From a virus (Duplodnaviria; Caudoviricetes), in IMG/VR virus record IMGVR_UViG_3300010163_003659, positions 31,901 through 95,900 of that record: a stretch of DNA of 64,000 nt; one strand, given 5' to 3'. The translations under genes were made by a program, and so were the position numbers. The notes below the pieces were generated by a model. It had not been told where the DNA came from. It saw only the letters and a program-made list of their open reading frames with translations, and ran no database searches. Below are positions 9,821 through 32,559 of the stretch, in pieces. The number at the start of each line of letters is the position of its first letter. Position 1 is the first letter of the stretch.

Positions 9821-10651
9821 ATGCCGAGGGCGCCGAGCGAAAAAATGATTGAAGCTGAAAAGCTGTTTAATGATGGAATGGCAATGGTGGAAATCGCAAA
9901 GAAACTGGGAGTTTCTGATGGTACTGTCCGTAGCTGGAAGAACAGATACGGATGGGCTGACAAGTCAAAAAAAAACAAACGCAACGTTGCAAAAAAAGAC
10001 GGTAAGAAAACTGCAACGTTGCAAAAGAAAAAGAAGGGCGGGCAGCTGGGAAATCAAAATTCTAAGGGAGCATCTAAAGGCAAGGGTAACCCAAAGCCAG
10101 TACCGCCACCCGATAGAACAAAACATGGTGGATATGTTCCTGTGTTCATGGATGCCCTCGATGAAGATGAGCAGGAACTCGTTGCAACGATTCCAGAAGA
10201 TACAGAACGGCAGCTCATGGAGCAAATACAGCTTTTTTCCATTCGGGAGCGCAGAATATTAAAAGCAATCAATAAATACCGGGAGCAAAAGGGAGACGTT
10301 GCGGTTGCTGATGTTACCAGATTTGAGGATAAGAGAATCTTCAAGGATAAGGAGGAAGAGGCAGAATACAATAGGCGCCAGAAGAAAAAAGTTGATAATG
10401 AAGAGATTCTTCCGGGTAAGTCCTACAGCATACAGACGCATACATCAAATAAGGATATGATAATAGCGAGGCTGGAACAGGAGCTTTCGACTGTTCAAAG
10501 CAAAAAGACAAAGGCTATTGAAGCATTGTCGAAATATCGCTTAGAAAAAGCAAAGTTGGAAAGTGAAAGTGCTGGAAATGATGCTGTTGACGATTGGATT
10601 GCAGCGGTTCTTGAGGAAGATGAGGGAGAGGATGTGAGTGGTGATGAATAA
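9821..10651 (+). CDS. terS: Terminase small subunit (N-terminal HTH)
   Basis: EIAKKLGVSDGTVRSWKNR HTH, GGQLGNQN, KHGGY; directly upstream of terL. Confidence 0.85.
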   Translation: MPRAPSEKMIEAEKLFNDGMAMVEIAKKLGVSDGTVRSWKNRYGWADKSKKNKRNVAKKDGKKTATLQKKKKGGQLGNQNSKGASKGKGNPKPVPPPDRTKHGGYVPVFMDALDEDEQELVATIPEDTERQLMEQIQLFSIRERRILKAINKYREQKGDVAVADVTRFEDKRIFKDKEEEAEYNRRQKKKVDNEEILPGKSYSIQTHTSNKDMIIARLEQELSTVQSKKTKAIEALSKYRLEKAKLESESAGNDAVDDWIAAVLEEDEGEDVSGDE

Positions 10652-11017
10652 GAACTCACGAGCGTTAAGGAAACGGTTCTTCCAGAAGAGAATTCCGGTA
10701 TATAGGAAAAATCCTGTCATATTCGCAAGGGAGGTATTGTTATTTGAGCCGGATGAATGGCAAATGGCGGCATTGATGGACTTGGCAGAGAATCCGAAAG
10801 TTGCGATTAAATCTGGGCAAGGTGTTGGAAAAACAGGTTTAGAAGCTGTGGCACTGCTGTGGTTTTTATGCTGCCACCCATATCCGAGGATTGTAGCGAC
10901 TGCACCAACCAAACAGCAGCTACACGATGTGTTGTGGTCCGAAGTCAGCAAATGGATGAGCAAGTCTCCTTTGCTCTCAGAAATCCTCAAGTGGACTAAG
11001 ACATATATCTACATGGT
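10644..11017 (+). CDS. terL: Terminase large subunit, 5' fragment (interrupted by integrated element)
   Basis: Walker A SGQGVGKT, ATAPTKQQL; terminase-like sequence ends at KTYIYMVG, which is the att site. Confidence 0.92.
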
Positions 11018-11020
11018 TGG
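11000..11020 (+). repeat. attL GACATATATCTACATGGTTGG (core TCTACATGGT)
   Basis: 19/21 identical to 31440-31460. Confidence 0.92.
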
Positions 11021-11100
11021 TGCGTCATTATTTAACTTTTCGTATCATCTGATATATGGCGGTATTGTTAAAGGGTGTATTTATATCAAATTATATTTTA

Positions 11101-11159
11101 TGGTGTCAATTAGTTTGTAATATGGTGTCAGAATTGGTGTACAGAAAAAAGTGGTGTCA
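11101..11159 (+). repeat. TGGTGTCA repeats (putative integrase arm-type sites)
   Basis: Copies at 11101, 11123, 11135 (partial), 11152; same motif at 31353 and 31365 near attR. Confidence 0.65.
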
Positions 11160-11380
11160 TATTGAAAAAAAGTGCTTGACAAGGGTTTTGATGAAATTTG
11201 TTACTCTGTACTTTTATTTCCATTCATTTTGAAATATGGGGTGTTTTATCTATCACCTGCTATTATGTGTTCTTAAGAGGCTGAAAGAGCGCGATTTGCT
11301 ATAATATTTATATCACTTTACATGGCTTGCCACAGTAAAAGGAAAATTAAAAAGACAAAAAAGAATAGGAGGTTTTTAAA

Positions 11381-11590
11381 ATGGTTGCAAGGGAAAAGGC
11401 TGATACAATGGTAACTTTGTCGGACAAGCGGCTGCTGAGTATAGACGAGTTTGGTATTTATGCCAGCATCGGAATATGTAAGGCAAGAGAAATAGCGGAG
11501 GAAACAGGCTCTTTGCTCAAGGTGGGGAAAAGAGTGCTTGTTGACCGGGTAAAGTTTGACCGGTGGTGTGATGAACACAGTGGAGTATGA
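11381..11590 (+). CDS. Excisionase-like small DNA-binding protein
   Basis: LLSIDEF..Y.SIG..KAR..KVGKRVLVDRVKFDRW pattern; AGGAGG RBS. Confidence 0.7.
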   Translation: MVAREKADTMVTLSDKRLLSIDEFGIYASIGICKAREIAEETGSLLKVGKRVLVDRVKFDRWCDEHSGV

Positions 11591-11620
11591 TACTTGGAGG
11601 AAAGGGGTAAATAAATCAGC

Positions 11621-12037: not shown

Positions 12038-12180
12038 CCTAGGTGGATTTTTCCACCTAGGCAGGAGGTAAACTAGGTGGATTTTTCCACCTACCCAGAA
12101 GAAAATGGGAAAAAGGTAGGTGGAAATTTCCACCCAGTGTCTGAATATTTTGATACTTACCTAGGTGGAAATTTCCACCA
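12038..12180. repeat. Four palindromic TAGGTGGAWWTTTCCACC units (iteron/operator-like)
   Basis: Copies at 12038 (perfect 10-bp arms), 12073, 12117, 12161. Confidence 0.85.
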
Positions 12181-12324
12181 CTTTATATAAAGTTTACCAT
12201 ATACTTATAAATTTATTGGAAATTAGAAATGGCTGATATGGGCATGCGGATATTGCTTTCAAACAGGAATAGGGATTTGTTATAGAAAGGAAATGAAATT
12301 GGATATCTGTCCGTTGTTTGCTGT

Positions 12325-12404
12325 GACATTTGTACGACGTTTGTTATGACATTTGTCCGGACATTTGTACATCATTTGTTGTGACATTTGTCCAGACAAA
12401 TGTC
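12325..12404. repeat. GACATTTGT tandem repeats, 11-12 bp period, last copy inverted
   Basis: Copies at 12325, 12336, 12348, 12360, 12371, 12383; inverted at 12395. Confidence 0.8.
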
Positions 12405-12919
12405 CTGTCTGCCATTATTGCTGATATGGGAATGTGTGTGGTTTTTCTTCTGATTCCTGATAATAGGATATCTGTAAAGCCTTTATTTTCAAGGTTCAGG
12501 GCATGGTATACCACTGGTAGTTATTTGGTTGCCACAGGTTAGGATAGAGTTAGGTTTGCACAGACCTCTAAATACATGGTGCAAAAAATGACTATTCCAT
12601 TGTGCAAAAATGTCCAATGGAAAGTACCAGAGAAACCAATGGATTGTGTAATAATGTCCAACCAATACCAAATAATAAACCATAGCGAACAGATGTCCGA
12701 TGTATAACTGAATACGGGCATAGGATAGCTCTAAGCCTGAGTAATGTAGCAGCAGGAAAATACTACAGACATGGGTATGCAGACAATAATACCGCTACAG
12801 ATAATGGGCTATTTGCCCAAAGCATAATAAAAGCCTGACTGCTGGGACAGAAAGGCTTTTAAAAGGCAAGTGTGGCATTTGCCATATTGGTAAATCTATT
12901 ATAAGGGAGATGCCGTCAT

Positions 12920-13774
12920 ATGTCGAATGAAAAGATTGTTGAGCAGATACAGCAGGGCATTAATGTGACAGCCAATCAGGAAAAGCTCTGGGAGCAAAAT
13001 AAGGGTTTTGTGGTACAGTGTATCAGAAAGTATGTAGGCGGGTGTGATGGGCAGGATTTTAAGGATTTCCTACAGGAAGGTTTTATAGGCTTGATAGATG
13101 CAGCCCGCCTATTTGATGCCGGGCATGGGGTGAAATTTTTGACTTATGCAGAGTACAGTATACGGAGAGCCGTATACCGTTATAATGGCATGAATACCTA
13201 TATGGTGTGTGTCCCGGAGTATCTTAAGGCGAGAATGAGGAAGTTGGCCGCATTCAGGCAGAAATATCGGGAAGAACACCACAGGAACCCGGAACCGGAA
13301 GAAATACTGAACGCTTTACACATTTCTTACCGTTCCCTCTGCCATCTGGAGAAAACCATAATGAACATAAGCACCAGGAGTCTTGATGAGTACATATCGG
13401 AGGATGGGAATACCAAACTGGCCGACCTGCTCTCAACAGATGAAAAGATTGACGAGCTGGCCGGAGGAAGTGAGTACCAAAGGGAGCTGCATGAGGAACT
13501 GGAAGCGGCACTTTCCATTTTGGATAATAAAACTGCCATGATGATACGGTGTGCATATTACCAGGGGAACAATTACACCAAGACCGCTGAAATATTTGGG
13601 TGCAGCAGGCAGGCGGTTGATGAACGCATAAAGAAAGGCTTTTATAAGATACTCCATTCAAGGCATAGGAAAAGGCTGGAAAGCTTCATGTGGGAGGGAT
13701 ACCATGTAGATTCCCGGCGCCTGAAGGACTATGTGGAGGAAATTGACAATATAAGCAGTGATTTTTTGTTATAA
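12920..13774 (+). CDS. Sigma-70 family RNA polymerase sigma factor
   Basis: Region 2 DFLQEGFIGLIDAARLFD..KFLTYAEYSIR; region 3 SLDEYI; region 4 HTH. Confidence 0.85.
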   Translation: MSNEKIVEQIQQGINVTANQEKLWEQNKGFVVQCIRKYVGGCDGQDFKDFLQEGFIGLIDAARLFDAGHGVKFLTYAEYSIRRAVYRYNGMNTYMVCVPEYLKARMRKLAAFRQKYREEHHRNPEPEEILNALHISYRSLCHLEKTIMNISTRSLDEYISEDGNTKLADLLSTDEKIDELAGGSEYQRELHEELEAALSILDNKTAMMIRCAYYQGNNYTKTAEIFGCSRQAVDERIKKGFYKILHSRHRKRLESFMWEGYHVDSRRLKDYVEEIDNISSDFLL

Positions 13775-13779
13775 GGCAG

Positions 13780-14601
13780 GTGGATGGGCATATGCCATAT
13801 TTTTATGATTATTTTGCTAAGGAATACAGGGACAGGCATAAGGAGGGGCTGTTTCCTGCCCCTGCTGCCATGTTCCGGGATATTAGGCAGGATGTGCAGG
13901 GATGCAGGCGGGTCTTAAAAAGTGCTTTTACCGGCTATCGTGAGGGCAGGAATACAGAAGTATTGAAAATGTTGTTTATGGAATACCGGGAATATATTGC
14001 AGGGCTGAATGATATGCAGGCAAAAGACAGATGTAATGCTTTTGCTTACCAGTATATGGTAGAGACATATGCTGGCAGCAGGGCGATAGCCACAAAGCTG
14101 GGGGTTGTGAAGGATACTGTATGGAATTACATCAACAGATGCATTGATGAAATGCTGATACTCTGCATGGGAATACCGGCAGCAGTTGAAGGTCCTGAAG
14201 GCAAAGAAAAGATTGTCCGGATGCTGGCAGGGGGTTGCAGGCTTCTACGGAATATGGCAGGGGAATATGTCCTGCTGCTCTTCCCGGGCAGGAGGCAGAA
14301 CCGGGCAGTAGAATGGGGCAGAGAGATAACAGGAGATGTTCTGCAGCAATTTGCGGGGGCTGTGGAGGCATACCTAGACTATTGCAGGGATGGACACACC
14401 CGCATTGATACTGACATCCGGAAGGCGTGGGTTCTGGAAAGGTGCATTGACGGAATTAGCCCTGCTGCCATTGCTGAAGAATATGGATGTTGTGAAAGCA
14501 CAATCTATGCAGATATTCGGGAGAATGATAGACGGCTTGCGGCCATGCTGTTTGATATGGAAAGAGATACTGCAAGCAACGGAAAAGTAAGGATAAATTG
14601 A
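13780..14601 (+). CDS. Protein with two sigma-region-4-like HTH motifs
   Basis: IATKLGVVKDTVWNYI and IAEEYGCCESTIYADI. Confidence 0.55.
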   Translation: MDGHMPYFYDYFAKEYRDRHKEGLFPAPAAMFRDIRQDVQGCRRVLKSAFTGYREGRNTEVLKMLFMEYREYIAGLNDMQAKDRCNAFAYQYMVETYAGSRAIATKLGVVKDTVWNYINRCIDEMLILCMGIPAAVEGPEGKEKIVRMLAGGCRLLRNMAGEYVLLLFPGRRQNRAVEWGREITGDVLQQFAGAVEAYLDYCRDGHTRIDTDIRKAWVLERCIDGISPAAIAEEYGCCESTIYADIRENDRRLAAMLFDMERDTASNGKVRIN

Positions 14602-14815
14602 TGCCAGAGAAGAATAGGGGAATAGATTTTTACTCAAAAATGAGTAAAGCAGACAGCAGTGGGAAAACGTCAACGGATTATGACATTTCTTTGGACATGT
14701 CAAAGCAGATTTGTATGATACAGAGGATGTCGGAGGGGAAACAGTGTCGGCAGTACCTTATCGACTTGGAGAAGGCATGAAATACACTGGAGCAGGTTAT
14801 GGCAAGGGAAGGGGA
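14598..14815 (+). pseudogene. AntA/AntB antirepressor remnant
   Basis: DMSKQICMIQR..GKQCRQYLIDLEKA*NTLEQVMAR: TGA where the family has Trp. Confidence 0.7.
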
Positions 14816-14824
14816 ATCTAAAGT

Positions 14825-15580
14825 ATGGAACAGTTGATCATGATTGAAAACGAGATGGTACCAGTATATACTACCAGCACAGGTGAGAAGGTAGTATATG
14901 GAACAGAGCTTCATCGAGTTTTAGAGGTAAAAAGCAATTATCGGGAATGGGCAAGCAGACGTTTTTTGGATATTGGAGCGGTGCAGCAGGAAGACTTCGA
15001 AAGCGTCGAAATTCCGACACTGGCAGGCGGCACTCCGAGGAAAGAGCATATTATCCGGTTGGATACCGCCAAAGAAATGGCTATGCTGGAGAGGAATGAG
15101 AAAGGAAAGCAGATCAGACGGTATTTTATTCAAGTTGAAAAGAAATATAGGGGCAGCAGTTCTGGGATGATTCCGAAAGGCAGGCAGCTGATGGCATTGG
15201 CGGTGATGGAGGCACAGAAGATTATTGCGGAACAGGAGCAGGTCATCTGTAGAATGAAGCCTAAGGAAGTTTTTGCTGATGCGGTGTCTGCATCCGACAG
15301 CTCCATCCTAATTGGGGAACTCGCCAAGATACTCCGGCAGAATGGGATTGCCACCGGGGAAAAGAGGTTATTTAGCTGGATGCGGCAGCAGGGCTATTTG
15401 ATACGCAGGAAAGGCATAGATTATAATATGCCGACGCAACGGAGCATGGAGATGGAACTCTTTGAGATAAGGGAGCGGACTATCAACAATCCGGGCGGGA
15501 GTATCCGGATAACAAAGACTGTGCTTGTGACAGGCAAAGGGCAGCAGTATTTCATTAATAAATTTTTGGATGAGGATTAG
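14825..15580 (+). CDS. Phage antirepressor (AntA/AntB + KilAC)
   Basis: ELHRVLEVKS..LDTAKEMAMLERNEKGKQIRRYFI; KPKEVFADAV..VTGKGQQYFINKF. Confidence 0.9.
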   Translation: MEQLIMIENEMVPVYTTSTGEKVVYGTELHRVLEVKSNYREWASRRFLDIGAVQQEDFESVEIPTLAGGTPRKEHIIRLDTAKEMAMLERNEKGKQIRRYFIQVEKKYRGSSSGMIPKGRQLMALAVMEAQKIIAEQEQVICRMKPKEVFADAVSASDSSILIGELAKILRQNGIATGEKRLFSWMRQQGYLIRRKGIDYNMPTQRSMEMELFEIRERTINNPGGSIRITKTVLVTGKGQQYFINKFLDED

Positions 15581-15684: not shown

Positions 15685-16320
15685 ATGATGGGAGCATTTG
15701 GTAAAGATTTGTTAACCCAACACGAGATGATAACCTTGGCATCAATTGTACAGGTTGGAGATGCTACTTACTTTGATTTGCTAGAGGCAGAAAGACCGAT
15801 GTTTGCGCATCCGTATTTCACTGATTTGAAGGGAAGAGTACGGACGAAACTTGTACAGATGCAGTGTGAGATGGAGCACTATGACGGCAAGTTCCCATTT
15901 GCGTTTTCTGAACGGGAATTTTGCTATGGGCATAAAGTGCCAGAATTAAGGAATAAGTATATGATAATCCATTTTGCACAAAGTAATTCGCCGACTTCCC
16001 TTCCAAGCAAGGCTGATTACAAATGTGAATTGACATTTAACAATGATTCGTTGTACCGTCAAATGAGATTTGACTTTTTAGGAGAACAAAAATATGTTAA
16101 AGAGCCATATTATGGCATTTTGGTTTTCGGAGGCCGGCAGGGAAAGACATTTTGCCGTTTACAGTTTCCGGAGCCGGGATACAGGGCTATTGCAGATTAC
16201 ATTGATATACCTATGATGAGTTTGGTGCCTGAAAAGGAGGAAACAAAGAAATTTGAAAGGAAAAAGGCGATACTGAGGGAGGAATTTCTAGCTCATAATG
16301 TCAGGGAAGAAGTATTATGA
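15685..16320 (+). CDS. Hypothetical protein, candidate toxin partner of downstream HTH-peptidase
   Basis: ATGA overlap with next gene; no motif recognised. Confidence 0.6.
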   Translation: MMGAFGKDLLTQHEMITLASIVQVGDATYFDLLEAERPMFAHPYFTDLKGRVRTKLVQMQCEMEHYDGKFPFAFSEREFCYGHKVPELRNKYMIIHFAQSNSPTSLPSKADYKCELTFNNDSLYRQMRFDFLGEQKYVKEPYYGILVFGGRQGKTFCRLQFPEPGYRAIADYIDIPMMSLVPEKEETKKFERKKAILREEFLAHNVREEVL

Positions 16321-17474
16321 AAAATAGTGTCATTCCAAGCCGCATAACAGAGGCACGTGAGGCTTGTGCATTGTCAATGGGGGATTTGGCAGAAAGAATA
16401 GGGGTTACGAGGCAGTCTGTTTCAAAATATGAAAGAGGAATTATGAGCCCTTCACTTGATGTCTTACAGTCAATTTCAGTTTTATTGCATTTCCCGGTTG
16501 ATTTTTTTTATAAAGAAGAGCTGGGAATAAGCACAGGAACAAGCCCGTTATTTTTTCGTTCTAAATCCAATATTTCCAAAAAAGTAAAGATGGCATGTAA
16601 GCACCAGGTAAAATGGGTTTGTGAGATAAGAAAACAGTTGGAAAGATATGTTAAATTTGTTGACCAGAACACTCTTGTAGTTGATGTGGATTATGAGAAT
16701 CTGCAGGATAGTGACATTGAAGAAATAGCTCTGTCGGTAAGACATGAGTGGGAACTTGGTGATGCTCCTATAGATGATTTGATAGGTATTTTAGAGAATC
16801 AGGGGATAATTGTAGCCCAATTTTCGGGAAATGATTTCTGCTCCTTTAATGGAATTGATGCGTATTCCTCATGGTATGGCGGAATACCTTATATAATTTA
16901 CAATTCAATGCAGAAAAGTGCTGTCCGTACAAGGTTTAGTATTCTTCATGAGTTGGGGCATTTAATTTTTCACAGTTCTGTTTCAGAAGAAGATGCAGTA
17001 AAAAAAGAAGTTGTTGATTTTGCAGATATGCAGGCAGACAGATTTGCAGCAGCTTTTCTTTTGCCGTCCACCTCTTTCCCGAAAGATGTAAGGGGAACCT
17101 CTTTGGCTTATTTAGAGATAATCAAAAAGAAATGGGGAGCTGCAATGTCTACCATAATCAGGCGTTGCGAGACATTAGACCTTTTGACGGATAATCAAAT
17201 CGGGTATTTGAAAAGGCAAATGACAACAAACAAGTATTGGCATAAGGAGCCCCTGGATGATGTGCTGCAGATTGAGCCGCCGGAGATGTTACGTGATGCG
17301 GTTTATCTGTTGATAGATAACAATATAATCACAAAACATACTTTTTTGGACTTATGTGCTTTGCCACCAAAGGATTTACAGTGCATATGCTCATTGCCGG
17401 ATGGCTTTTTTGGCAGTCCCCTGCAGAAGCAAAAACCTGTTTTAAGAGTGGTGAGGGAGGGGGAAGATTTTTGA
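16317..17474 (+). CDS. XRE HTH + ImmA/IrrE (peptidase M78) protein
   Basis: N-terminal XRE HTH; RTRFSILHELGH; ADRFAAAFLLP. Confidence 0.9.
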   Translation: MKNSVIPSRITEAREACALSMGDLAERIGVTRQSVSKYERGIMSPSLDVLQSISVLLHFPVDFFYKEELGISTGTSPLFFRSKSNISKKVKMACKHQVKWVCEIRKQLERYVKFVDQNTLVVDVDYENLQDSDIEEIALSVRHEWELGDAPIDDLIGILENQGIIVAQFSGNDFCSFNGIDAYSSWYGGIPYIIYNSMQKSAVRTRFSILHELGHLIFHSSVSEEDAVKKEVVDFADMQADRFAAAFLLPSTSFPKDVRGTSLAYLEIIKKKWGAAMSTIIRRCETLDLLTDNQIGYLKRQMTTNKYWHKEPLDDVLQIEPPEMLRDAVYLLIDNNIITKHTFLDLCALPPKDLQCICSLPDGFFGSPLQKQKPVLRVVREGEDF

Positions 17475-18479
17475 GATGTAATTTGTTTGGAAGTTGCAAT
17501 AAAGGCAAACGGCATAGAAATTAAAGTTATAGGGAATAATATATTGATTAATAGAGGCAGCACTTTCAATGTGAAGCCGGGCACTGCAAGTGTCTGGCTT
17601 TTTTGCGTACAGGGGGGGTGTCTGCAAGGGAAAGCCTACAGGGCAGACAGCGTTTTTTGTGTGTGAGGAAAGCGAACGTTCGCTTAATTACAAAACAATG
17701 GCACATGGCGGTAAGGATACTGTAAACCTGCTGTTTATGGTATCCCGCCCATATTGCTGTGCCTTTTTAAAAAGCGAACGTTCGGTTTGCCCCATACAGA
17801 AAAACGGGCGGGGATTTACCGCAGCGTTGCATTTTCCGCAGAAGGAAAACGAATCACAGGTGGAGCGGTTTGCCAGTGCAAGAAGGTGGCGCAGGTGGAA
17901 CGGCCGAAAGCTCCCCACGGAAGCAAAAACAAATGATTGCAACGTTGCAAAAGCCTGAGGGGAGTCTGTGGCACACGCAGAGGCTTCATTTTGCCGCTCT
18001 AATGGCCGGAATGATAAGAATTGCCCTTCAGCATTGCAAAGGGGCTGTATGGGCAAAATAGGCGGTGCGTGGGGTGGGGCTGCTGCCGTGCAATATTGTG
18101 GCAGGGGATAGGAGGGGCAACAGGAAGAATTTCATGGGGACAGGATGCACAGCGTCAAGGTGTGGGCGGGATAGGATACCATCTGCCCCATCATAGGCGA
18201 GGGGAGTGTATTGAAAGGGTTTGGGATAGCCTGGGGATGCCAGCGCTGCAGTGAAGGGATCCTGCTGCCGTCAGAGACATAACCAGAGACAGAGACATAG
18301 GCATAACCGTATGGCCTTCAGATTGCCCGAAATTCGGTTGAAATTATTTTAGACAATAATTTTATCGTTGAGAGAATAAAATGAGCATGGCGGCCAAAAT
18401 AGAAGGCGAACAGAACTATATCAAACTTGAAGCAGTTAGGACAACAGGTTCTGCTTATAGGAACATAGGAATTTTTTAG

Positions 18480-18508
18480 TTGCGTATGGGACTAACTAAT
18501 ACTATAAT
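18480..18508 (+). promoter_or_regulatory. Promoter TTGCGT-N17-TATAAT for TIR-NLR operon
   Basis: Exact 17-bp spacing; same hexamers precede second module. Confidence 0.7.
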
Positions 18509-18566
18509 AGTGGTAGATAACAAATGACAAGGGAGGACAAAAGATGGAAATACGGAGGTGGAATTT

Positions 18567-19220: not shown

Positions 19221-19239
19221 CTGATAAGGGGGAATTACT

Positions 19240-22422: not shown

Positions 22423-22425
22423 GTT

Positions 22426-23174: not shown

Positions 23175-23203
23175 TTGCGTAAGCATTAAACCAATATTAT
23201 AAT
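23175..23203 (+). promoter_or_regulatory. Promoter TTGCGT-N17-TATAAT for second effector-NLR operon
   Basis: Same hexamers and spacing as 18480-18508. Confidence 0.7.
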
Positions 23204-23218
23204 AAAGACAGATAAAGG

Positions 23219-23461
23219 ATGATAGGGGGAATGGTGGAAATGATGGAAGTGTTTAATGTTATTAGTGGAGTATGTTCCATTGTTGGACTGTCTGTTTCTC
23301 TTTTTACGGCCAGCAAGGTGATTAAAATAACGCAGAACATTAACAGTGGCAATGTAGATGACCATTCAAAGGTTGTTAATGGAGGCAAAGGCAATACATA
23401 TAATGGGCCATATGCAGGGAGGGATTATACGAATGAGACGAGAAGTGGACAACAGAAATAA
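23219..23461 (+). CDS. Single-TM micro-protein with C-terminal N/G-rich GPYAGRD motif (start may be 23240/23243)
   Basis: Hydrophobic VFNVISGVCSIVGLSVSLF; tail shares motif with NLR2 N-terminus. Confidence 0.75.
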   Translation: MIGGMVEMMEVFNVISGVCSIVGLSVSLFTASKVIKITQNINSGNVDDHSKVVNGGKGNTYNGPYAGRDYTNETRSGQQK

Positions 23462-25820
23462 AGACAGCAATTTCTATGGGCCATATGCTGGCAGGGATAT
23501 GAATGTTACCAATATCATAATGCTTCAAGATTCAGAGCGTGAATTTGTCGTTACGCACAATGCTGATATTAAGCCAGTGTCATATTTCACAGGCAGGGAA
23601 ACGGAACTGGAAGAACTGCGTCAGAGGATAGATGAGGGACGCAAGTCGGTTCTGGTGAGTGGCATGGGCGGTATTGGTAAGACTCATATCTGCAGGAAGT
23701 TGTTTGAAGAGTACACCAATAAACATGCGAAAGGTGAAAATATACCTTTCTGCCATATTGGATATATTGAGTACAATGGGGACATGGGCAGCAGTTTACA
23801 GAACTGTCTAAAATTTAAGGAACAGGATAACCCAGAACAGAACCAGGCGGCAGCGTGGAAAGAATTAGAATATTTGGCAGCAGACGGGAAACTGTTGCTG
23901 TTTGTTGACAATGTGAATGTGTCGGTGAGGGAGGATGCAGGGCTGGAAAGGCTGAAACAGATTCCTGGAGCAGTGGTGCTGACTTCCAGAAGGACATCTT
24001 TCGGCAAGGAGTTTGAACCGTACAGGATTGGTTTTTTGAGTACAGAGCAATGCATAATGGTTTATGAGAAAATCCGGTATGAGAATAGCAGCAAGAAAGT
24101 GCCGGAAGAAGAGATACTGGATTTAGAATATATCATAGAGAATATGGCAGCAGGACATACCATTACCATTGAATTTTTTGCACATTTAGCCGAAACAAAG
24201 CAATGGAGTATAAAAAGGCTGCGTGAGGAACTGGACAGCAAAGGGTTTCGGTTGGAATACAAGGATGAAGAGGACAAGTTGATAAATATTCAGGAAGAAT
24301 ATGAAAAGTTGTATGATTTGTCTGTTCTGACAGAGGCGGAAGGGAACATACTGGAGGCGTTTTCTGTATTTCCGTATATTCCTTTATCTGCGGAAATTTG
24401 TAATCAATGGTTGCTTTTTGATGCGGGGGCAAGTGAAGATGATGATATTCTGATGGGACTGTATCAAAAAGGGTGGTTGCAGTTTGATGTGGAGCAGGAG
24501 AGCTATGCTATGCATCCAGTATTTGCAAAGTTTATTGATGAGAGGAAGAAACCAAAATTTGAAGAGCATCGTGGATTGATAGAGGTATGTCAAAAGTGTT
24601 TGGAAATACCAGAAAACGGCTCTGCTTTGGATTGTCAAAGATATATTCCGTTTGCAGAAAATATTATAAAAAAGATAGATATGAAATCAAGTATAAAGGA
24701 AGCAAGATTTATAACAGAACTTGCTTATTTGTTGCAATATATAGCAGAGCATGAAAAAGCGGAGGAATTGTATGAAAAAAGTTTGAGAATACAGGAAAGA
24801 GTGCTGGGGGAAGAACATTCAGATACCGTTGCGATCTATAATAATCTGGCATATGTATATAATTGCCAAGGAGAGTACAAAAGATCGAAAGAGCTATATG
24901 AAAAGAGTCTGTGGATAAGGGAAAAAGTGTTTGGAGAGAAACATCCAGCTATGGCATACGATTATAATAATTTGGCAATGATGTATGAGAGGCAAGGGAG
25001 ATATAGGGAGTCAGAGGACTCGGTTGTTGATAATATGGAGAATGAAGGAAGTGCAAGAAAAAGAGAAAGACGAAGAAAAGGAAATATTTTTGGAAATGTA
25101 CTATCAATAATTTCTTTGGTAATTAGTTTATTATCGTTATTGATATCTTACAGGACTATCCAATTAGAAGAAGTGGAATATCAACCGCATTTTATTTGTA
25201 CTACAAAAAATAATGAGGAATATAAAAAACCTGAAAGTTTCTATTTTAAGATTCACACGATTAAAAATATTGGAGTGCCGATATCTAACGTGGAATTTGA
25301 TATACAAGAAGTTTTATGTTTTCAAAGGGCTTTAACCAGTGAAAGTATGGATGTGTTGATTTGGAAAAAAACAGATATTCTAAACGAGGATAAAGATATT
25401 AAATACGATTTAGATAAACAAGAAATTGTAATTGAAGGAATCCGTTTAGAATATATAGAATATATGCTTAATAGCTATTTTAACAGTGATAGCAATATTT
25501 TTTTTTATGAGCCATATCGCATTAAAGTATATAATGTGACTTGTAAAAGAATCTTAAATATACAGTATACAAATAGGGAGGGCGTAAACTGTAGGGAATG
25601 TTATGAGTTAAAAGAAAATCATATTTCTCTTTTAGACAAAATTGTGAAACGTGAAGATTATAACGAAATAGTTGATTTTATACATGGAAGTAAGTATGAA
25701 TTAGGGGAGGTGTATCAAGATAATATGGAACAAGCACAAGATATGATAACTAATATGTTGGGAATTAATATAGAAAGAGAGAAAGAGGAGTTAGCAAAAC
25801 AATATAACAAGAAAGATTAA
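23433..25820 (+). CDS. STAND/NB-ARC + short TPR array fused to TM-anchored C-terminal domain (NLR-like protein 2)
   Basis: Paralogue of NLR1 from QDxEREFVVTHNADIKPVSYFTGRETEL onward; RBS GGGAGG before ATG 23433. Confidence 0.88.
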   Translation: MRREVDNRNKDSNFYGPYAGRDMNVTNIIMLQDSEREFVVTHNADIKPVSYFTGRETELEELRQRIDEGRKSVLVSGMGGIGKTHICRKLFEEYTNKHAKGENIPFCHIGYIEYNGDMGSSLQNCLKFKEQDNPEQNQAAAWKELEYLAADGKLLLFVDNVNVSVREDAGLERLKQIPGAVVLTSRRTSFGKEFEPYRIGFLSTEQCIMVYEKIRYENSSKKVPEEEILDLEYIIENMAAGHTITIEFFAHLAETKQWSIKRLREELDSKGFRLEYKDEEDKLINIQEEYEKLYDLSVLTEAEGNILEAFSVFPYIPLSAEICNQWLLFDAGASEDDDILMGLYQKGWLQFDVEQESYAMHPVFAKFIDERKKPKFEEHRGLIEVCQKCLEIPENGSALDCQRYIPFAENIIKKIDMKSSIKEARFITELAYLLQYIAEHEKAEELYEKSLRIQERVLGEEHSDTVAIYNNLAYVYNCQGEYKRSKELYEKSLWIREKVFGEKHPAMAYDYNNLAMMYERQGRYRESEDSVVDNMENEGSARKRERRRKGNIFGNVLSIISLVISLLSLLISYRTIQLEEVEYQPHFICTTKNNEEYKKPESFYFKIHTIKNIGVPISNVEFDIQEVLCFQRALTSESMDVLIWKKTDILNEDKDIKYDLDKQEIVIEGIRLEYIEYMLNSYFNSDSNIFFYEPYRIKVYNVTCKRILNIQYTNREGVNCRECYELKENHISLLDKIVKREDYNEIVDFIHGSKYELGEVYQDNMEQAQDMITNMLGINIEREKEELAKQYNKKD

Positions 25821-25927: not shown

Positions 25928-26491
25928 TTAAATATTCAGCAAATCGGCAATTTCCGAGAAGTTGATAAGCAGATCATCATAGATATTGACCTTGATTGTG
26001 GAATCAAAGGAGTACTGGATGTTTAGCATATTTTCCTCGAAGTAGTTGACGGTTACTGTTTTGCGGCGCGGATCTACAATCCAATACTCACGCACTCCAT
26101 AATTTTTGTAGTAGTAGAGTTTGCGGACATAATCATCTGCTGGATTACTGGGAGAAATAATTTCAATGATAAAATCTGGAGCACCGTTGCACCGTTTTCC
26201 GTCTAACTTGTCTTTATCACATACAATCATGAGGTCAGGTTGGACAATGGTAAGTGGAGTATCATTCAATTTTACATCAAATGGGGCATGAAATACCCGG
26301 CATGGCCCATTTTTGCTTTTGAGATAGGTGTTGAGCATAGTCGAAAGTTCCATGGAGATTGTCTGGTGATCCTGGGACGGACTGGCCATATCAAAGACAA
26401 TACCATCAAATACTTCTACCCTTTTTTCCTCTGGAAGAGCTTCATACTGTTCTAGGGTGATTGTTTCCGGCTGTGGTTGTAATGCTGGCAT
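25928..26491 (-). CDS. Uma2 family endonuclease
   Basis: MASPS..HQ, VQPDLMIVCD, GAPDFIIEIISPS, GVREYWIVDP. Confidence 0.92.
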   Translation of the reverse strand: MPALQPQPETITLEQYEALPEEKRVEVFDGIVFDMASPSQDHQTISMELSTMLNTYLKSKNGPCRVFHAPFDVKLNDTPLTIVQPDLMIVCDKDKLDGKRCNGAPDFIIEIISPSNPADDYVRKLYYYKNYGVREYWIVDPRRKTVTVNYFEENMLNIQYSFDSTIKVNIYDDLLINFSEIADLLNI

Positions 26492-26619: not shown

Positions 26620-27474
26620 CTAATAACAAGCCTCATAAAAACGGTTGTTGCGTATGCCCTCCGACATGAAATGGCAGATATTATAATCACAGTTATCATA
26701 CTGTGTTTTGAAATGCTGTGATATCAATGCCTTATACATATCCGGATCAGTGCCATCAACCAGCTCAGAGCCAGAGTAGATAGCTTCTATGACGCTGTCC
26801 ATTGCCGAGCTTGACAGGCGAGGATGTTCCTTGTGAAATGTTGCCATATACAGTGAGTAGTAGTACTCAATGATTGTAATATAGTCGGAATGCTCTGTAA
26901 TACCCTGCTTGTGGCATGATTTGATTATCTGTTTCTCCAATATGGATGAATTAAAAGGCGTAGTTGTGCTTAATGTGTGAAACTGTTTTAGTTCTGTGCC
27001 ATTTAAACTTTTAATGTTCTCTGTAGTAGTATCTGTGTAGTCTATGGTATTGGCCTGTTCATTTTGAACAGTTCCATAGTGCCAATCTGAACAGACGATG
27101 TGTTCATTTTGAACAGACGAGGAAAAGAGACTATTTAACGCATTATAGTTAATTGTGTACCATTTTGTTTTATCAAATCCAGCCCTATTGTAATTTCCGG
27201 CAATTAGCAGCCCCTTGTTTTCAAGTTTGGTCATGGTGCGCCGGATAGTCATAATGGACCAGAACGGAAACTGCTCTTGCCACTGATCATAGGTATTATA
27301 TACCCAGTAATGCCCGTCAATGTAGTCCTGTCCGGTTTTCTCCTTGTGCTTCAGCCAATAATGCACTTGCTGTAGTATGATGGCTTCGTTTAGCCCAATC
27401 AGCGTTGCCAATGTCGGCATGACTTGTAATGGGTGTTCATCTAATAATAAATTGCTAATGGCTGTTACCTCCAT
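26620..27474 (-). CDS. Phage-type replication initiator (wHTH)
   Basis: LIGLNEAIILQQVHYW, WVYNTY..W..QFPFWS..TIRR, DKTKWYTINY; internal repeats. Confidence 0.75.
   Translation of the reverse strand: MEVTAISNLLLDEHPLQVMPTLATLIGLNEAIILQQVHYWLKHKEKTGQDYIDGHYWVYNTYDQWQEQFPFWSIMTIRRTMTKLENKGLLIAGNYNRAGFDKTKWYTINYNALNSLFSSSVQNEHIVCSDWHYGTVQNEQANTIDYTDTTTENIKSLNGTELKQFHTLSTTTPFNSSILEKQIIKSCHKQGITEHSDYITIIEYYYSLYMATFHKEHPRLSSSAMDSVIEAIYSGSELVDGTDPDMYKALISQHFKTQYDNCDYNICHFMSEGIRNNRFYEACY
27055..27120. repeat. Iteron-like repeats inside rep gene (TGTTCATTTTGAACAG / TGAACAGACGA)
   Basis: Copies at 27056, 27088, 27101. Confidence 0.7.
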
Positions 27475-27498
27475 TCTGTGTATTTGGACATATGTTAC

Positions 27499-27717
27499 CT
27501 ATTTTTCGGCACTGTCAGCAGGAACATACTCCATAATGTCTTCTGGTTGACAGTTAAGGGCTTCACATATATTGCTTAATACTTCTGTTGTAACAGTTTC
27601 ACCCTTCGATAATTTGGCAAGTGTAGGAGAAGAAATGATTTTGTTATTTAATAAATCAGTTTTTTTCATTCCTTTGCGTGTCAATAAATCGAAAAGTTTA
27701 TAGTACTTCATACTCAT
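27499..27717 (-). CDS. Cro/C1-type HTH repressor
   Basis: ISSPTLAKLSKGETV..ICEALNCQPEDIMEY. Confidence 0.88.
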   Translation of the reverse strand: MSMKYYKLFDLLTRKGMKKTDLLNNKIISSPTLAKLSKGETVTTEVLSNICEALNCQPEDIMEYVPADSAEK

Positions 27718-27906: not shown

Positions 27907-28341
27907 ATGAAAAACATTACAACAATCCGCCGGACAGTAGCAACCATGGCGAACCAGTTACACAAGCTGGGGTATTCCCTATCTCAGGCATTCAAAACCG
28001 CATGGAAGCGTATCAAAGAATCCATGACCTGCAGGGTATCCGGTGTCACATACGACAAGCGTCAGGAGCTTCTACAGTTCATTGCCAGCAGGAAACCGGA
28101 AGAGCTGACGGTATACCTGCAGCGTGACAGGGCAAACACCTATGACAGGTTCGCAGTTGCGGTAGTTATCGGCATTAAGGACATAGGGTATGGACATATA
28201 GGGTATCTGCCAAAGGGGCTGTCCCAGGGCATGGCGGCAGTCATAGACAAGGGGATACAGGTCAAGGCCACGCTGGTACAGGTTATCGGGGGCTACAGCT
28301 ATAAGGAAACCCTCGGCGCACTGGTAAATATCGCAGTATGA
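27907..28341 (+). CDS. HIRAN domain protein
   Basis: VSGVTY..RQ, LQRDRANTYDRFAVAV, HIGYLP. Confidence 0.85.
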   Translation: MKNITTIRRTVATMANQLHKLGYSLSQAFKTAWKRIKESMTCRVSGVTYDKRQELLQFIASRKPEELTVYLQRDRANTYDRFAVAVVIGIKDIGYGHIGYLPKGLSQGMAAVIDKGIQVKATLVQVIGGYSYKETLGALVNIAV

Positions 28342-28352
28342 AGGAGGAGAAG

Positions 28353-28487
28353 ATGGATTATCAGGCATTAACGGTTGAGGACTGCATCAGTAAACTGGAG
28401 CAGGAAGGGATGGCAGCAGTCATTGAGGATGGAGCCGTTACAGGCTTCGTAGAAGAAAAGAGCCCTTACCAGAGGTCGCAACTCTGA
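28353..28487 (+). CDS. 44-aa hypothetical protein (not in ORF track)
   Basis: AGGAGG RBS; MDYQALTVEDC... Confidence 0.5.
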   Translation: MDYQALTVEDCISKLEQEGMAAVIEDGAVTGFVEEKSPYQRSQL

Positions 28488-28591
28488 TAAAGGCAGGTAA
28501 CCCGTCAACCAAGCAAATCGGGGTATGCAGGCAGTATAACACGACTGCTGCCGCCCTGTCAAAGAAATTAAGGAATATGGAGGTAAGAATA

Positions 28592-28984
28592 ATGCAGGGT
28601 AACACAATAACGCATACTGATACTGCCTGCCAGGTGGTGGACATCAGTGGTTTTAAAGGATGCAGGAAGGAGATGGTGGAAGACTGGCTGAGAAAGAAAA
28701 TGTCAGAAACGTATGGTGATGATTCAGAATGCATACTGGGCAATCCGCTCCTCAGAATTTCCACGAAGTTTACAGCGCTAAGCCATAGTGCGCAGCATAA
28801 GCTTTATGGTTATGCCGAGAGGGTTATTATGGCCCAGGGGAACGAACTGACACTGAAAGACAAGCTGTGGGATGTTTTGGAAAAGGGAGGAAGGGACGGT
28901 TCATGGGAGACCATAGAAAAATATGCTGATACACTACTGGCAAAGGAAAAGGCATGGAAGCAGGGGAATGGAGGTTTGGTTTAG
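28592..28984 (+). CDS. Hypothetical protein
   Basis: GGAGGT RBS; operon context. Confidence 0.55.
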   Translation: MQGNTITHTDTACQVVDISGFKGCRKEMVEDWLRKKMSETYGDDSECILGNPLLRISTKFTALSHSAQHKLYGYAERVIMAQGNELTLKDKLWDVLEKGGRDGSWETIEKYADTLLAKEKAWKQGNGGLV

Positions 28985-28985
28985 G

Positions 28986-29309
28986 ATGGAACAGGATGTA
29001 ATTAAGGCAAAGGCGGACAGGGAATGTGAAATTTTAAGAAGAAAGCAGAGGGAAAGTCTTGAATCAGACCTGATTAAGGAAATCTATTACATGGTGAATG
29101 AAGACAGGAATGAAACTGCCGGCGAAATGCAGGCAGACATGAAGCTGGAGGAAGCGCTGGAAGCATTTGAAAATGGCACTCCTGCAGGCAATATCATTGA
29201 CTTGGCAAGTGAGTGCAGTGCGGAGGCAAGGGAAGCAGGTTTCAAGATGGGATTCCGTGTAGCCATGAAACTCTGCATGGAGGGAATGAAAGGGGGTGCT
29301 GTCTTGTGA
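28986..29309 (+). CDS. Hypothetical protein
   Basis: GGAGG RBS; C-terminal GFKMGFRVAMKL. Confidence 0.55.
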   Translation: MEQDVIKAKADRECEILRRKQRESLESDLIKEIYYMVNEDRNETAGEMQADMKLEEALEAFENGTPAGNIIDLASECSAEAREAGFKMGFRVAMKLCMEGMKGGAVL

Positions 29310-29375: not shown

Positions 29376-29780
29376 GTGCTGATGGAAGACAGGAAAATAT
29401 TCCTTACTGCTGCAGACATAGCCTCTGACCTCTCCATCAGTGAGGAAGAGGCTGTGGAACTTGTCAAAAAGCTGCAGAAGGAGTTGAAGGAATCCGGCAG
29501 GCTGGTTGTCTCAGGCAAAGTACCTGCTGCCTGGTATGAACAACAGAAAGAGGATGGTTTCATGGGAATAGGGCAGCAGACGGAGCGCATACCGTTGACA
29601 GAACGCAGATTATTAGGCATAAAGGAGTTTCGGGTATATGCAGGGGGGATTGGTGATGGGATGGCGAGGAAACTGGTTAAAGAGATAGGCGCCGCAGTTC
29701 ATATTGGGGACCGCCTTCTGGTCGACCGCCTCCGGTTTGATGAATGGTGTTCAGAACAGAACCGTCAGGGGCAGCAGTAG
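29376..29780 (+). CDS. Two-domain excisionase-like protein
   Basis: N-terminal HTH-like; C-terminal half aligns with 11381-11590 protein; upstream of integrase. Confidence 0.65.
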   Translation: MLMEDRKIFLTAADIASDLSISEEEAVELVKKLQKELKESGRLVVSGKVPAAWYEQQKEDGFMGIGQQTERIPLTERRLLGIKEFRVYAGGIGDGMARKLVKEIGAAVHIGDRLLVDRLRFDEWCSEQNRQGQQ

Positions 29781-30101
29781 GAAACTGACAGGGCTGTGAC
29801 GCACGTAGAGGCCTTATTTTGGACCGAAAAGAGAAAAGGTGATAATAATACCGTTAATGAAATAAAAAGCCCTGTAGGGGAAATTAGAGGGCATTGGAAG
29901 AAAAGGTGATTATGGGGAAAGCAGAAAACAGAGGCTCCCGCCATGCTGCAACATGGGAGAGCCCATAAGAGCTAAGGCACATGATAAGAAAGACCAAAGC
30001 ATTTGTATTATAACTGAATTTAGAGACGTTCACAATAAAAACTGAATATGGATTGAGGCGGTTCTGCTGCCTCTTTGCGTAACAGAAAGGAGCTGGGGGA
30101 C

Positions 30102-31283
30102 ATGGCAGAGAACAAAAAGAAACAGTTGCCGCCGGGGATTTCACTGCGTAAGGATGGCAGGTACCAGGCGAGATATACATTTAACGGCAAACGCTATTCA
30201 ATTTATGGCAAGGACTTGAAGGAAGTGCAGAAAAAGCTTCGGGATGCCAAGTATGAAATGGATCATGGCATATTCGCCAAGCCGGATAAGGTAACGGTAG
30301 ATTCATGGTTTAAGGTATGGAAAGAGGAATATGCAGCCAACAGCATGAGGGAGAACACCCTCGCCCATGTAGACAGCATGTATAGATACCACATAAAGCC
30401 GGAGATAGGGAACATGAAAATACAGGATGTACGAACCGAACATATCCAGATGCTGCTTAACAAGATGAAAAAGCAGGAATATTCTTCGGATTTTATGAAA
30501 AGAGTCAGAAATGTTGTGAGCCAGATGTTTAAGCAGGCATACAGGAATGACATGATTATGCGGAATCCAGTAGAGAATGCAGTTACCCCATCCGGAAAGA
30601 CAAAAAAGGAGCACAGGGTACTGACGGAACAGGAGCAGGCGTTGTTCCTGGAATATGCAAAGGAAACTGAATATGAGCTGGTTTTCGTGCTCGGATTTTC
30701 TACAGGAATGAGGATAGGCGAGATACAGGCCCTGCAGTGGCAGAACATAGATTTCAAAAATCTGGAAATCAGCATAGAGGGTACACTTGTCAAGGTGGAT
30801 GGAAAGGAGTATGTAAAAGGGCCTACAAAGACAAAGAGCAGCATCCGCACCGTTCCACTGCTCCCTGATGTAGCAAAACAGCTAAAGAAGTACAAAAAAG
30901 AACAGTCGGAATACCGCATGATGTTAGGGGCAGAGTGGCAGCAGGTAAGGGGGCTGGAGGATTTGCTGTTCTGTACTGCAGTGGGCAGGCCGCTTTCAAG
31001 GAGCGTTTTGTACAATGCTATTGACCGGATTATTGAGCTGATTAATCATGATGAGAGGATAAGGGCAAAAGCAGAGGGACGGAAAGCGGCAGTGTTTGAG
31101 CATTTTTCAAGCCACACCATGAGACACACCTTTGCGACAAGGGCTTTAGAGAATGGTATTCCTCCAAAGGTTGTCCAGGAACTTCTGGGGCACAGCACTA
31201 TAAAGACTACAATGGATATATATACTCATGTATTGCCTAAGACAAAGAATGAGGAGATACAGAAAATTGCCAGTCTGTTCTGA
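30102..31283 (+). CDS. int: Tyrosine integrase of the embedded element
   Basis: [22 protein letters not shown]...TMDIYTH; N-terminal arm-binding domain. Confidence 0.95.
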
Positions 31284-31439
31284 TGGTTATCTGCTGCCGG
31301 CCGGGAAAAAGTACCAGCCTGGCAGCAGATGGTTTATACCATGTAAGATAATTGGTGTCAATGGTGGTGTAAACCAGTGGCATGAAACGCTTCAAATGAC
31401 TGGCAAAGCAGGCGGTTAGGGCATTTATAGAAAGTATAC

Positions 31440-31460
31440 GACATATCTCTACATGGTCGG
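31440..31460 (+). repeat. attR GACATATCTCTACATGGTCGG
   Basis: Direct repeat of attL, same reading-frame register. Confidence 0.92.
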
Positions 31461-32559
31461 CAATGAAAAGCGTTGGTTTGCGGTAGCCAGGACTGCTACA
31501 AAGCCAGAAAATATGCAGGGATTCCACGAGGATAATATGCTATTCATAGTAGATGAAGCCTCTGGCGTTGCCGATCCAATCATGGAAGCAATACTTGGTA
31601 CACTGTCCGGTGAAAATAACAAATTATTGATGTGCGGGAACCCGACAAGAACTTCTGGCACATTTTATGATGCTTTCCATGCTGATAGAACCCTATATAA
31701 AAATCATACGGTATCATCTGCAGACAGTCCCAGAACAAATAAACAGAATATTGAAAGTCTTATACGAAAGTACGGCAGGGACAGTAATGTAGTGCTTGTC
31801 AGGGTATTTGGAAAATTCCCAGAGCAGGAGGATGATGTATTTATAATACTTGCTATTATTGAACAGTGTGGGAGTAAGATATACAACCTGCCAGAAGATA
31901 AAGGTATGCCCTTTATTGTGTTTGGGGTAGATGTTGCCAGGTTCGGGGATGATGAAACTGTTATATACAGGAATGTTAAAGGGAAATTAAAGCTGGCTGT
32001 CCATAGGCTCGGGCAGAACTTGATGGCAACTGTTGGGGATATCGTTGCACAGTATAGAAAAGTAATCAGGGAATTCCCAGAATACAATGGACGTATCTAT
32101 GTCAATATTGATGATACTGGATTGGGCGGCGGGGTAACGGATAGGCTGAGAGAGGTAAAGATGGAGCAGAAATTACACCGTCTGTTTGTGATACCTATTA
32201 ATGCGGCAGAAAAGATTGAGACAGATACCAAAGAAGGGAAAGAGGCTGCAGAGCATTATAATAACCTGACTACACATATGTGGGCGGTTTTGCGAGATTT
32301 ACTAGAGGATAAGCAGGTTGAGATAGAGGATGATGCAGATACCTTTGCACAGCTCTCCGCCAGGAAATATTTTATGGCATCAAACGGTAAACTGGAACTT
32401 GAAAGTAAAAAAGAGATGAAGAAGCGGAATCTCCCATCGCCCGATAGGGGAGACGCAGTAGCCTTGTCAGTATATCTTGGAAAGATCAAAAAATATACAG
32501 GAAGCGCACCAAGCAGTGATGCTATTAACGGTCTTAATAAATCAAGTTATTGGACATGA
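31453..32559 (+). CDS. terL: Terminase large subunit, 3' fragment
   Basis: Walker B FIVDEASG, CGNPT, nuclease GVDVARFGDD, SPDRGDA. Confidence 0.93.
   Translation: MVGNEKRWFAVARTATKPENMQGFHEDNMLFIVDEASGVADPIMEAILGTLSGENNKLLMCGNPTRTSGTFYDAFHADRTLYKNHTVSSADSPRTNKQNIESLIRKYGRDSNVVLVRVFGKFPEQEDDVFIILAIIEQCGSKIYNLPEDKGMPFIVFGVDVARFGDDETVIYRNVKGKLKLAVHRLGQNLMATVGDIVAQYRKVIREFPEYNGRIYVNIDDTGLGGGVTDRLREVKMEQKLHRLFVIPINAAEKIETDTKEGKEAAEHYNNLTTHMWAVLRDLLEDKQVEIEDDADTFAQLSARKYFMASNGKLELESKKEMKKRNLPSPDRGDAVALSVYLGKIKKYTGSAPSSDAINGLNKSSYWT

Follow-up and report, generated by a model that had tools for sequence, protein, structure and literature searches.

A 20.4-kb element carrying defence genes splits the terminase gene of a prophage and is probably a helper-embedded satellite

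We analysed a 64,000-nt window (bases 31901-95900) of the 95.9-kb IMG/VR provirus record IMGVR_UViG_3300010163_003659, in which a 20,440-bp element interrupts the large terminase gene (terL) of a prophage between its Walker A and Walker B motifs. The element entered terL by conservative site-specific recombination at a 10-bp core. We consider it probable that it is a satellite that gates its helper phage, couples its own excision to the helper late phase, is packaged by the helper and carries defence genes as cargo. One description of helper-embedded satellites exists, from lambdoid prophages of enterobacteria (PMC10111431), and we found no Gram-positive helper-embedded element in the literature. 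Coordinates are those of the window unless the record is named.

The two ends of the element carry an identical 10-bp core, TCTACATGGT, on the + strand at 11008-11017 and 31448-31457 (attL-attR offset, 20,440 bp), of which 0.11 copies are expected by chance in the window. The core is embedded in a 21-bp imperfect repeat, GACATAT[A/C]TCTACATGGT[T/C]GG, and the junctions and the two parts of terL are arranged as follows.

11000-11020, + strand: attL, with the core at 11008-11017.
31440-31460, + strand: attR, with the core at 31448-31457.
10638-11120, + strand: terL N-terminal fragment with Walker A; native codons to about 11021, then 32 element-derived codons and a stop.
31453-32559, + strand: terL C-terminal fragment with Walker B and the nuclease domain; a Mu-type portal gene is next, at 32580-34172.

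The N-terminal fragment, which starts at ATG 10644 or GTG 10638 and has the Walker A motif SGQGVGKT, departs from TerL sequence after ...KWTKTYIYMVG and stops at 11120, past the 32 unrelated codons. The right-hand open reading frame (ORF) begins at the M of YMVG, with an in-frame stop 12 codons upstream; its match to TerL runs from YMVGNEKRW on and includes Walker B (MLFIVDEA) and no Walker A. Both halves match consecutive stretches of the same profiles (phrog_5902, positions 15-130 then 124-357; phrog_2, positions 260-348 then 350-596). Together they show the hallmarks of a large terminase: the ATPase with Walker A and B is N-terminal, the nuclease is C-terminal, and terS and the portal gene flank the locus. 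Phage terminases in GenBank match the split TerL at about 50% identity, and among 5.8 billion proteins searched there were many intact homologues of 491-494 residues, 81-98% identical to it. These read ...LKWTKTYIYMVGNEKRWF... across the joint, the best (P0003) being 98% identical (alignment A1).

Four contigs (L022-L025) contain the empty site, with 45 of 45 nt identical to the left of attL and 45 of 45 to the right of attR, and because both flanks are identical the boundaries of the insert are fixed to the base. The intact terL DNA reads ...KWTKTYIYMVGNEKRW..., which is exactly the predicted joint, and the proteins of those intact genes are 94-98% identical to the split one. Recombination between attL and attR would rebuild a TerL of 123 + 368 = 491 residues from ATG 10644, or 493 residues from GTG 10638, with a joint identical to that of the intact relatives. 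An earlier, sequence-only reading of this DNA had proposed that a 20.4-kb element splits terL, that excision restores the gene exactly, and that Walker A and Walker B, parted by the insertion, are rejoined in a TerL of about 491 residues; the joint of the intact relatives bears this out, and the related phages with intact terL that it had named as a check were found, both as L022-L025 and as the 491-494-residue homologues. It had also stressed that attL and attR share a codon register. This is true, but the two ends of any insertion between direct repeats share a register automatically, and it is therefore no additional evidence of adaptation; the empty sites, rather than the codon register, are the real proof of insertion.

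The element carries a complete recombination apparatus, whose genes and arm sites lie close to its two ends.

30075-31283, + strand: tyrosine integrase with an Integrase_DNA-like arm domain, SAM_3 and a catalytic domain (Pfam Phage_integrase, 1.5e-31; phrog_1).
11381-11590, + strand: Xis-like gene (Tn916-Xis/DUF6462; PF09035, 24.6 bits against a cut-off of 22.9; PF20063, 27.2 bits against a cut-off of 27.1; phrog_16129, excisionase).
29376-29780, + strand: double Xis-like protein (ICEBs1 Xis model, E 1.9e-7, below cut-off; DUF6462 weak).
11101-11159, + strand: cluster of the arm-type repeat TGGTGT(C/A)A, three exact copies and one variant, +92 to +143 from the core.
31353-31372, + strand: doubled arm-type repeat TGGTGTCAATGGTGGTGTAA, at -96/-84 from the core; conserved in the related elements L001, L011, L029 and L031.

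The integrase lies at the right end of the element and is transcribed in the same direction as terL. Its residues R213, H347, R350, H373 and Y383 are invariant in the integrase alignment (A2) and are read as the catalytic residues of a tyrosine recombinase, and the architecture of integrase and Xis is of the Tn916/ICEBs1 type. The left Xis-like gene is the first element gene past the terL N-terminal fragment, on the same strand, and is 84% conserved in L001; the double Xis-like gene stands directly 5' of the integrase gene in all family members examined. The motif TGGTGT(C/A)A occurs 13 times in the window against four expected, and five of the 13 copies lie within the two arms. Searches of the element with Pfam, PHROGs, NCBIfam and PADLOC detected no conjugation, portal, capsid, terS or terL gene, in agreement with the earlier remark that it combines defence cargo with a lack of recognisable capsid genes. 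It thus fits the general definition of a satellite, having no structural or packaging genes and its own integration and replication functions.

Insertion into phage genes is recurrent. In more than 20 independent contigs, with contexts inspected in ENA, Logan, NCBI and IMG/VR assemblies, a split phage gene adjoins a relative of the integrase. The relatives are 51-91% identical to it, the tiers being 82-91%, 62-69% and 51-59%, and three target sites are used.

Site A, terL codon ~125: the window, L001-L004, L011, L029, L040 and L127.
Site B, terL codon ~149, immediately ahead of Walker B: L031/L034, L041-L048, L050 and L053.
Site C, codon ~338 of a phage sodium/solute-symporter-like gene, 3.8 kb upstream of terS: L049, L051 and L052.

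Every insertion is co-oriented, with the integrase having the orientation of the split gene. In the IQ-TREE integrase tree each site group forms a single split (supports 99/97, 100/97 and 100/98), and the doubled arm motif between the integrase gene and attR is conserved across site groups. Among the best 120 TerL clusters, five are C-terminal fragments in which foreign residues precede xLYM[VI]G, and these are further insertions at the same codon. The smallest relative, of 9.6 kb (L001-L004), has the same ends and the Xis, sigma factor, tandem regulator, Uma2 and integrase genes. One site-B integrase is listed in 874 data blocks, and searches of GenBank phages and PLSDB plasmids gave no close integrase relative, all matches being below 37% identity. 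Taken together, these comparisons establish that the insertion is site-specific, that the recombination apparatus is complete, that excision would restore terL exactly and that phage genes are targeted repeatedly.

Three kinds of link tie the element to its helper: iterons, a palindrome and a regulator.

12302-12405: iteron array with units GACATTTGT(C/A)C, matching iterons that lie within the helper replisome-organizer gene (record C1:21018-21076).
9821-10651, + strand: helper terS (phrog_1889, E 1.5e-53; Pfam Terminase_5 and Phage_terminase).
12920-13774, + strand: sigma-70 family factor, regions 2-4, group-3-like (Pfam; phrog_351, E 1.5e-43; NCBIfam superfamily).
13780-14601, + strand: tandem two-domain regulator, an HTH_23 protein of 273 residues, homologous to the helper phrog_1558 regulator; a family core gene.

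Of the four occurrences of the iteron 11-mer GACATTTGTCC in the 95.9 kb, two fall in the helper organizer gene (identified by phrog_5968, E 9e-53) and two in the element array, with degenerate copies beside both loci. In SPP1-type phages the origin is located within the organizer gene. Between the DnaD-like initiator of the element and the helper replisome organizer there was no similarity.

The palindrome GCAACGTTGC has three copies in the record, two in terS and one in the element. The terS copies, present as the 14-mer GCAACGTTGC(AAAA) at 9981 and 10013, fall in two different reading frames, which places the conservation at the DNA level, and the pair is retained in the terS of intact relatives. 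The element sequence TTGCAACGTTGCAA at 17937 matches the terS palindrome, and elements of site groups A and B hold one to three copies of the palindrome within a conserved module of ~90 nt. We regard the element palindrome as a candidate packaging or TerS site.

The helper regulator gene (4364-4954) is a full-length member of phrog_1558 (E 2e-53). The N-terminal half of the element's tandem regulator matches phrog_1558 positions 104-172, its C-terminal part (E 2e-9), and the C-terminal half aligns to residues 112-193 of the helper regulator (hhalign probability 79%, E 1.6e-5). BLASTP of the element HTH_23 protein against the helper regulator gave nothing, the remote homology appearing by profile methods only. 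The placement of phrog_1558 before the late module, together with weak Atlas leads to ArpU/RinA-like and sigma-like proteins, suggests that it is a late activator. The sigma factor is a family core gene (76-77% identity in L001 and L034); in the helper there was neither a second sigma factor nor a paralogue of the tandem regulator.

These observations allow us to propose how the element may exploit its helper. As long as the element is integrated the helper would have no functional large terminase, and virion production would wait for excision. Helper late transcription from terS and the terL N-terminal fragment would run into xis and so couple excision to the late phase; late transcription could act as the trigger because xis is the first gene past the N-terminal fragment and no +-strand terminator-like site was seen between terS and xis. 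The excised circle would then replicate through its own DnaD-like initiator, through the helper organizer acting on the copied iterons, or through both, and the helper terminase would package it through the copy of the terS palindrome GCAACGTTGC, the element supplying no structural genes. The sigma factor and the tandem phrog_1558-like regulator would act on late transcription. In the lysogen, the cargo (a Rosmer-like pair, TIR-STAND, SEC-C/2TM-STAND and Uma2) may shield the consortium of host, helper and element from other phages.

Several observations weigh against this satellite reading. Neither an attP junction nor an element-only contig was found, so that excision and packaging are steps we infer. 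Exact 37-nt and degenerate 36-nt attP patterns were unmatched in IMG/VR, where long assemblies favour the integrated form, and for the same reason the lack of a match to the degenerate pattern in JGI metagenomes is uninformative. All 24 of 24 long contigs with the integrase P0170 carry the integrated form, which such assemblies again favour. A pattern built on the 20-nt core gave four matches, all unrelated by flanks and gene content. The small relative L001 lacks the iteron array, and the regulator homology comes from shallow alignments (hhalign probability 79%). Chance sharing of short words is common, 41 element positions having exact 14-17-mers that also occur in the rest of the record; a single 16-mer match to terS is weak for this reason and gains weight only from its recurrence in other elements. 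We accordingly dropped the 16-mer as stand-alone evidence and kept it solely for its recurrence in the terS of relatives and in other elements. With sizes that run from 9.6 to >20 kb, the elements do not keep to a fixed fraction of the helper genome, and a rule that size equals one third of the helper was rejected. Finally, TerL could be supplied in trans from another prophage, the host chromosome lying outside the record; in favour of the reading, no second terL was found in the whole 95.9-kb record.

The element might instead be a defence island resident in prophages, to which the phage genes serve as mere att sites; it would be inherited vertically with a crippled prophage or moved by rare generalized transduction, would domesticate the prophage, and the motifs it has in common with the helper would be regulator binding sites or chance matches. 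A cargo made up mostly of defence genes, the lack of packaging or capsid genes and the frequency of chance 14-17-mer matches would all suit such an island. Its integrase, Xis genes and arm sites are, however, intact, and they are conserved at all three sites and in many helpers, which points to frequent movement; the att sites occur only in phages and there are no conjugation genes; and the terS palindrome recurs in elements of different site groups, with helper-type iterons in the element. We therefore think this explanation unlikely. That a second temperate phage is nested in the first and has decayed, losing its structural genes, could account for the phage-like integrase and Xis, the Cro/CI-type HTH, the antirepressor, the DnaD-like initiator and the sigma factor. 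More than 20 relatives of 9.6 to >20 kb, however, have a common core without structural modules, only L034 having a tape-measure-like gene, and uniformly small elements built on a conserved core are the mark of a satellite family, not of independent decay, which leaves this account with a slim chance. An assembly chimera, with the element not truly within terL, might come to mind given that this IMG/VR provirus record apparently holds tandem related prophages, yet the junction repeat is as expected for site-specific recombination and the same type of junction appears in independent ENA, Logan, NCBI and IMG/VR assemblies, so we give it practically no credence.

The remaining features of the element, from left to right, include most of its cargo.

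Between the left Xis-like gene and the hairpin repeats: an ORF without assignment.
12040-12179: four copies of an 18-nt palindromic hairpin, TAGGTGGA(A/T)(A/T)TTTCCACC, terminator-like on both strands.
14598-15580, + strand: AntA remnant (14598-14780) and Ant/KilAC antirepressor (14825-15580); variable cargo begins here.
15685-17474, + strand: Rosmer-like pair, a weak RmrT (15685-16320; PADLOC, E 1.2e-6) and RmrA (16317-17474; PADLOC, E 1.4e-104).
17475-18557: palindrome-rich region of ~1.1 kb with no supported ORF, with CGAACGTTCG twice (17673, 17775) and TTGCAACGTTGCAA at 17937.
18558-21621, + strand: TIR protein (18558-19220) and STAND NTPase with NB-ARC and TPR (19240-21621).
21796-25820, + strand: SEC-C protein, 2TM protein and a second STAND NTPase with NB-ARC and TPR (23358-25820).
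25928-26491, - strand: Uma2-family nuclease (PADLOC PDC-S03), semi-conserved in the family.
26620-27717, - strand: DnaD-like replication initiator (26620-27474; phrog_6493, E 3.4e-54) and Cro/CI-type HTH protein (27499-27717; HTH_26).
27907-29309, + strand: HIRAN-domain protein and two small ORFs without assigned function, conserved in the family.

RmrA combines an HTH domain with an M78 peptidase (Pfam). The stretch 18558-25820 consists of two effector and STAND modules, TIR with STAND1 and SEC-C/2TM with STAND2. STAND, TIR and SEC-C modules are recurrent cargo (L045, L050-L052), and the SEC-C/2TM/STAND module itself recurs in L045, L050, L051 and L052. Over stretches of 300 nt the identity between the two STAND genes is 78-82%, and the TPR repeats of STAND1 are 126 nt long. 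A fragment of 60 AntA residues stands just 5' of the complete Ant gene, at the border between conserved core and variable cargo, and may be a scar of cargo exchange. The hairpin-repeat region sits between the left-end genes and the iteron array and is absent from L001. No Rfam family was found in 9500-33000.

Some relatives show further variation. In L034 (site B) a gene for a 1189-residue PhageMin_Tail (tape-measure-like) protein follows the sigma/regulator pair directly (L034:1293-4862), and it may be a captured helper late gene, as described for the helper-embedded phage-inducible chromosomal islands (HE-PICIs) of enterobacteria. A more distant element (L035:1-12000) has a CI-like repressor, a DUF6462 Xis, a sigma factor and Uma2, and its integrase shares 32% identity with ours; the element adjoins phage early genes (RecT, replisome organizer) and not terL, and the wider family may use further phage sites. 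In L011, a contig of a Eubacterium sp. metagenome-assembled genome (MAG), the integrase matches in three pieces in different frames (L011:5302-6460), which could reflect a decaying copy or assembly errors.

The helper is a Mu-portal-type myovirus prophage of roughly 60-65 kb without the element, from a Lachnospiraceae-like host. The names of relatives that indicate Lachnospiraceae are Candidatus Merdisoma and MAGs of "Eubacterium" and Mediterraneibacter. At its left end are an integrase and a repressor (record C1:8755-11912), then SbcCD-like genes, the replisome organizer and a DnaC-like loader. The late genes run in the order pre-terminase module, terS, split terL, Mu-type portal, Mu F, protease, major head protein, sheath, tape measure, baseplate and amidase, and the structural module looks complete. 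The pre-terminase module (5116-9718) comprises a symporter-like gene, two PAPS-reductase-like genes and two ParB-like genes, is kept in L022, L049, L051 and L052, and may be a DNA-modification pathway. Its symporter-like gene (5116-6537) is of the type hit at site C by a sister integrase subclade in other phages.

Two integrase genes (window 62442-63851 and record C1:8774-10152), 85.6 kb apart, are 82% identical in DNA together with adjacent sequence, which suggests that the 95.9-kb record contains tandem related prophages. The record is probably made up of these and the embedded element, and the size and completeness given for it are likely inflated. A search for att sites of the helper prophage found none, the sole match being that between the two integrase genes. 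An IS3-type transposase lies at 60848-62088, and the window has no tRNA genes.

Together these data indicate that the family is apparently a widespread, undescribed Gram-positive counterpart of helper-embedded satellites, laden with defence genes and devoid of structural genes. An unrelated integrase lineage has come to the same solution in Gram-positive gut anaerobes, which suggests that helper embedding is a general, convergent strategy of phage parasites; both lineages break a late gene, insert co-oriented with it, use several sites in phage genes with a subclade for each, and have doubled arm motifs. Tentatively, and with more doubt than confidence, we suggest that phages of gut Lachnospiraceae harbour a large family of helper-embedded satellites, founded on the present example and evolved independently of HE-PICIs, which would hold a packaging gene hostage, time excision by the late transcript, carry copied iterons and a pac-like palindrome, seize late transcription with a sigma factor and a tandem regulator, and form a main vehicle for NLR-like STAND/TIR defence in the gut microbiome. 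Composites of this kind inflate provirus size and completeness calls, the present record being listed as a 95.9-kb provirus, 100% complete. A split terL makes the prophages that carry such elements look defective, and the embedded elements conceal a mobile reservoir of gut defence systems. NCBI names the integrase cluster of one relative from Candidatus Merdisoma sp. JLR.KK006, and a cultured lysogen may exist.

Among known systems, the nearest analogues are the HE-PICIs, satellites inside the late genes of lambdoid helper prophages in enterobacteria (Tommasini, Mageeney & Williams 2023, PMC10111431). Their target sites include terL (A:Terminase_1:245), their hallmarks are AlpA next to the integrase gene and a doubled TGTATTGC motif at about -81 and +132 of attP, and their gene order is int-alpA, a Bro-N zone, primase/replication and a late zone with capsid genes (PMC10111431). 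Our element is likewise located in, and has the orientation of, a helper late gene, here terL between terS and the portal gene, with the integrase and most genes on the terL strand. Its attP also lacks a replacement sequence, so that the target gene is broken until excision; a 10-bp identity block, arm-type motifs that are doubled and stand at set distances on either attP arm, and a single integrase clade with several phage-gene sites and subclades tracking those sites complete the resemblance.

The differences are equally clear. The phage is one of Gram-positive Lachnospiraceae and not a lambdoid enterobacterial phage; integrase and Xis are Tn916/ICEBs1-like, whereas AlpA (PF05930) is unmatched in the record; and the arm motif is TGGTGT(C/A)A, TGTATTGC being present as four scattered single copies, at chance level, with no doubled copy. 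In the element a DnaD-like initiator takes the place of a primase, late genes such as those for the capsid are lacking, and the gene order is xis, sigma factor, regulator, cargo, Uma2, DnaD-like initiator, HIRAN, xis-like gene and integrase gene. Its core is the sigma factor with the tandem regulator, its defence cargo is large, and one family site is in a non-structural phage gene, the symporter gene. Given the Tn916-like architecture (Integrase_DNA, SAM_3) and the identity of below 37% to relatives in the phage and plasmid databases, it is very unlikely that the integrase belongs to the HE-PICI clade. The earlier suggestion that the element fits the helper-embedded-satellite lifestyle thus holds as an analogy, strengthened by three phage-gene sites with their integrase subclades, but does not extend to membership of the HE-PICIs, given the lack of AlpA, of a doubled TGTATTGC motif and of a primase, the gene order, the Tn916/ICEBs1-type integrase and Xis, and the Gram-positive host.

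P4, whose helper is P2, has no structural genes, and its Delta protein, built of two Ogr-like domains in tandem, activates helper late genes. The present element resembles it in lacking structural genes, in its defence cargo, in its tandem regulator (Delta against the phrog_1558-like protein) and in a size of about one third of the helper (20.4 kb here). It differs in that P4 integrates in the chromosome and not in its helper, the proteins are unrelated, and no Sid-like capsid-size factor was identified here. Staphylococcus aureus pathogenicity islands and other Gram-positive phage-inducible chromosomal islands (PMC10085698) are also phage-dependent islands of Firmicutes, with int/xis, a regulator, a replication module and exploitation of helper packaging, which we infer here; in contrast, no terS, ppi or cpm homologue and no Stl-type master repressor was identified in our element, and its att site is in the helper and not in the chromosome.

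Skin in sigK and SPbeta in spsM are integrative elements that split host genes, which are rebuilt by programmed excision in the service of host development; PMC10111431 also discusses such elements. They have in common with the present element a gene split by an integrative element and rebuilt on excision, as predicted here, whereas the gene split in our case belongs to another mobile element and not to the host.

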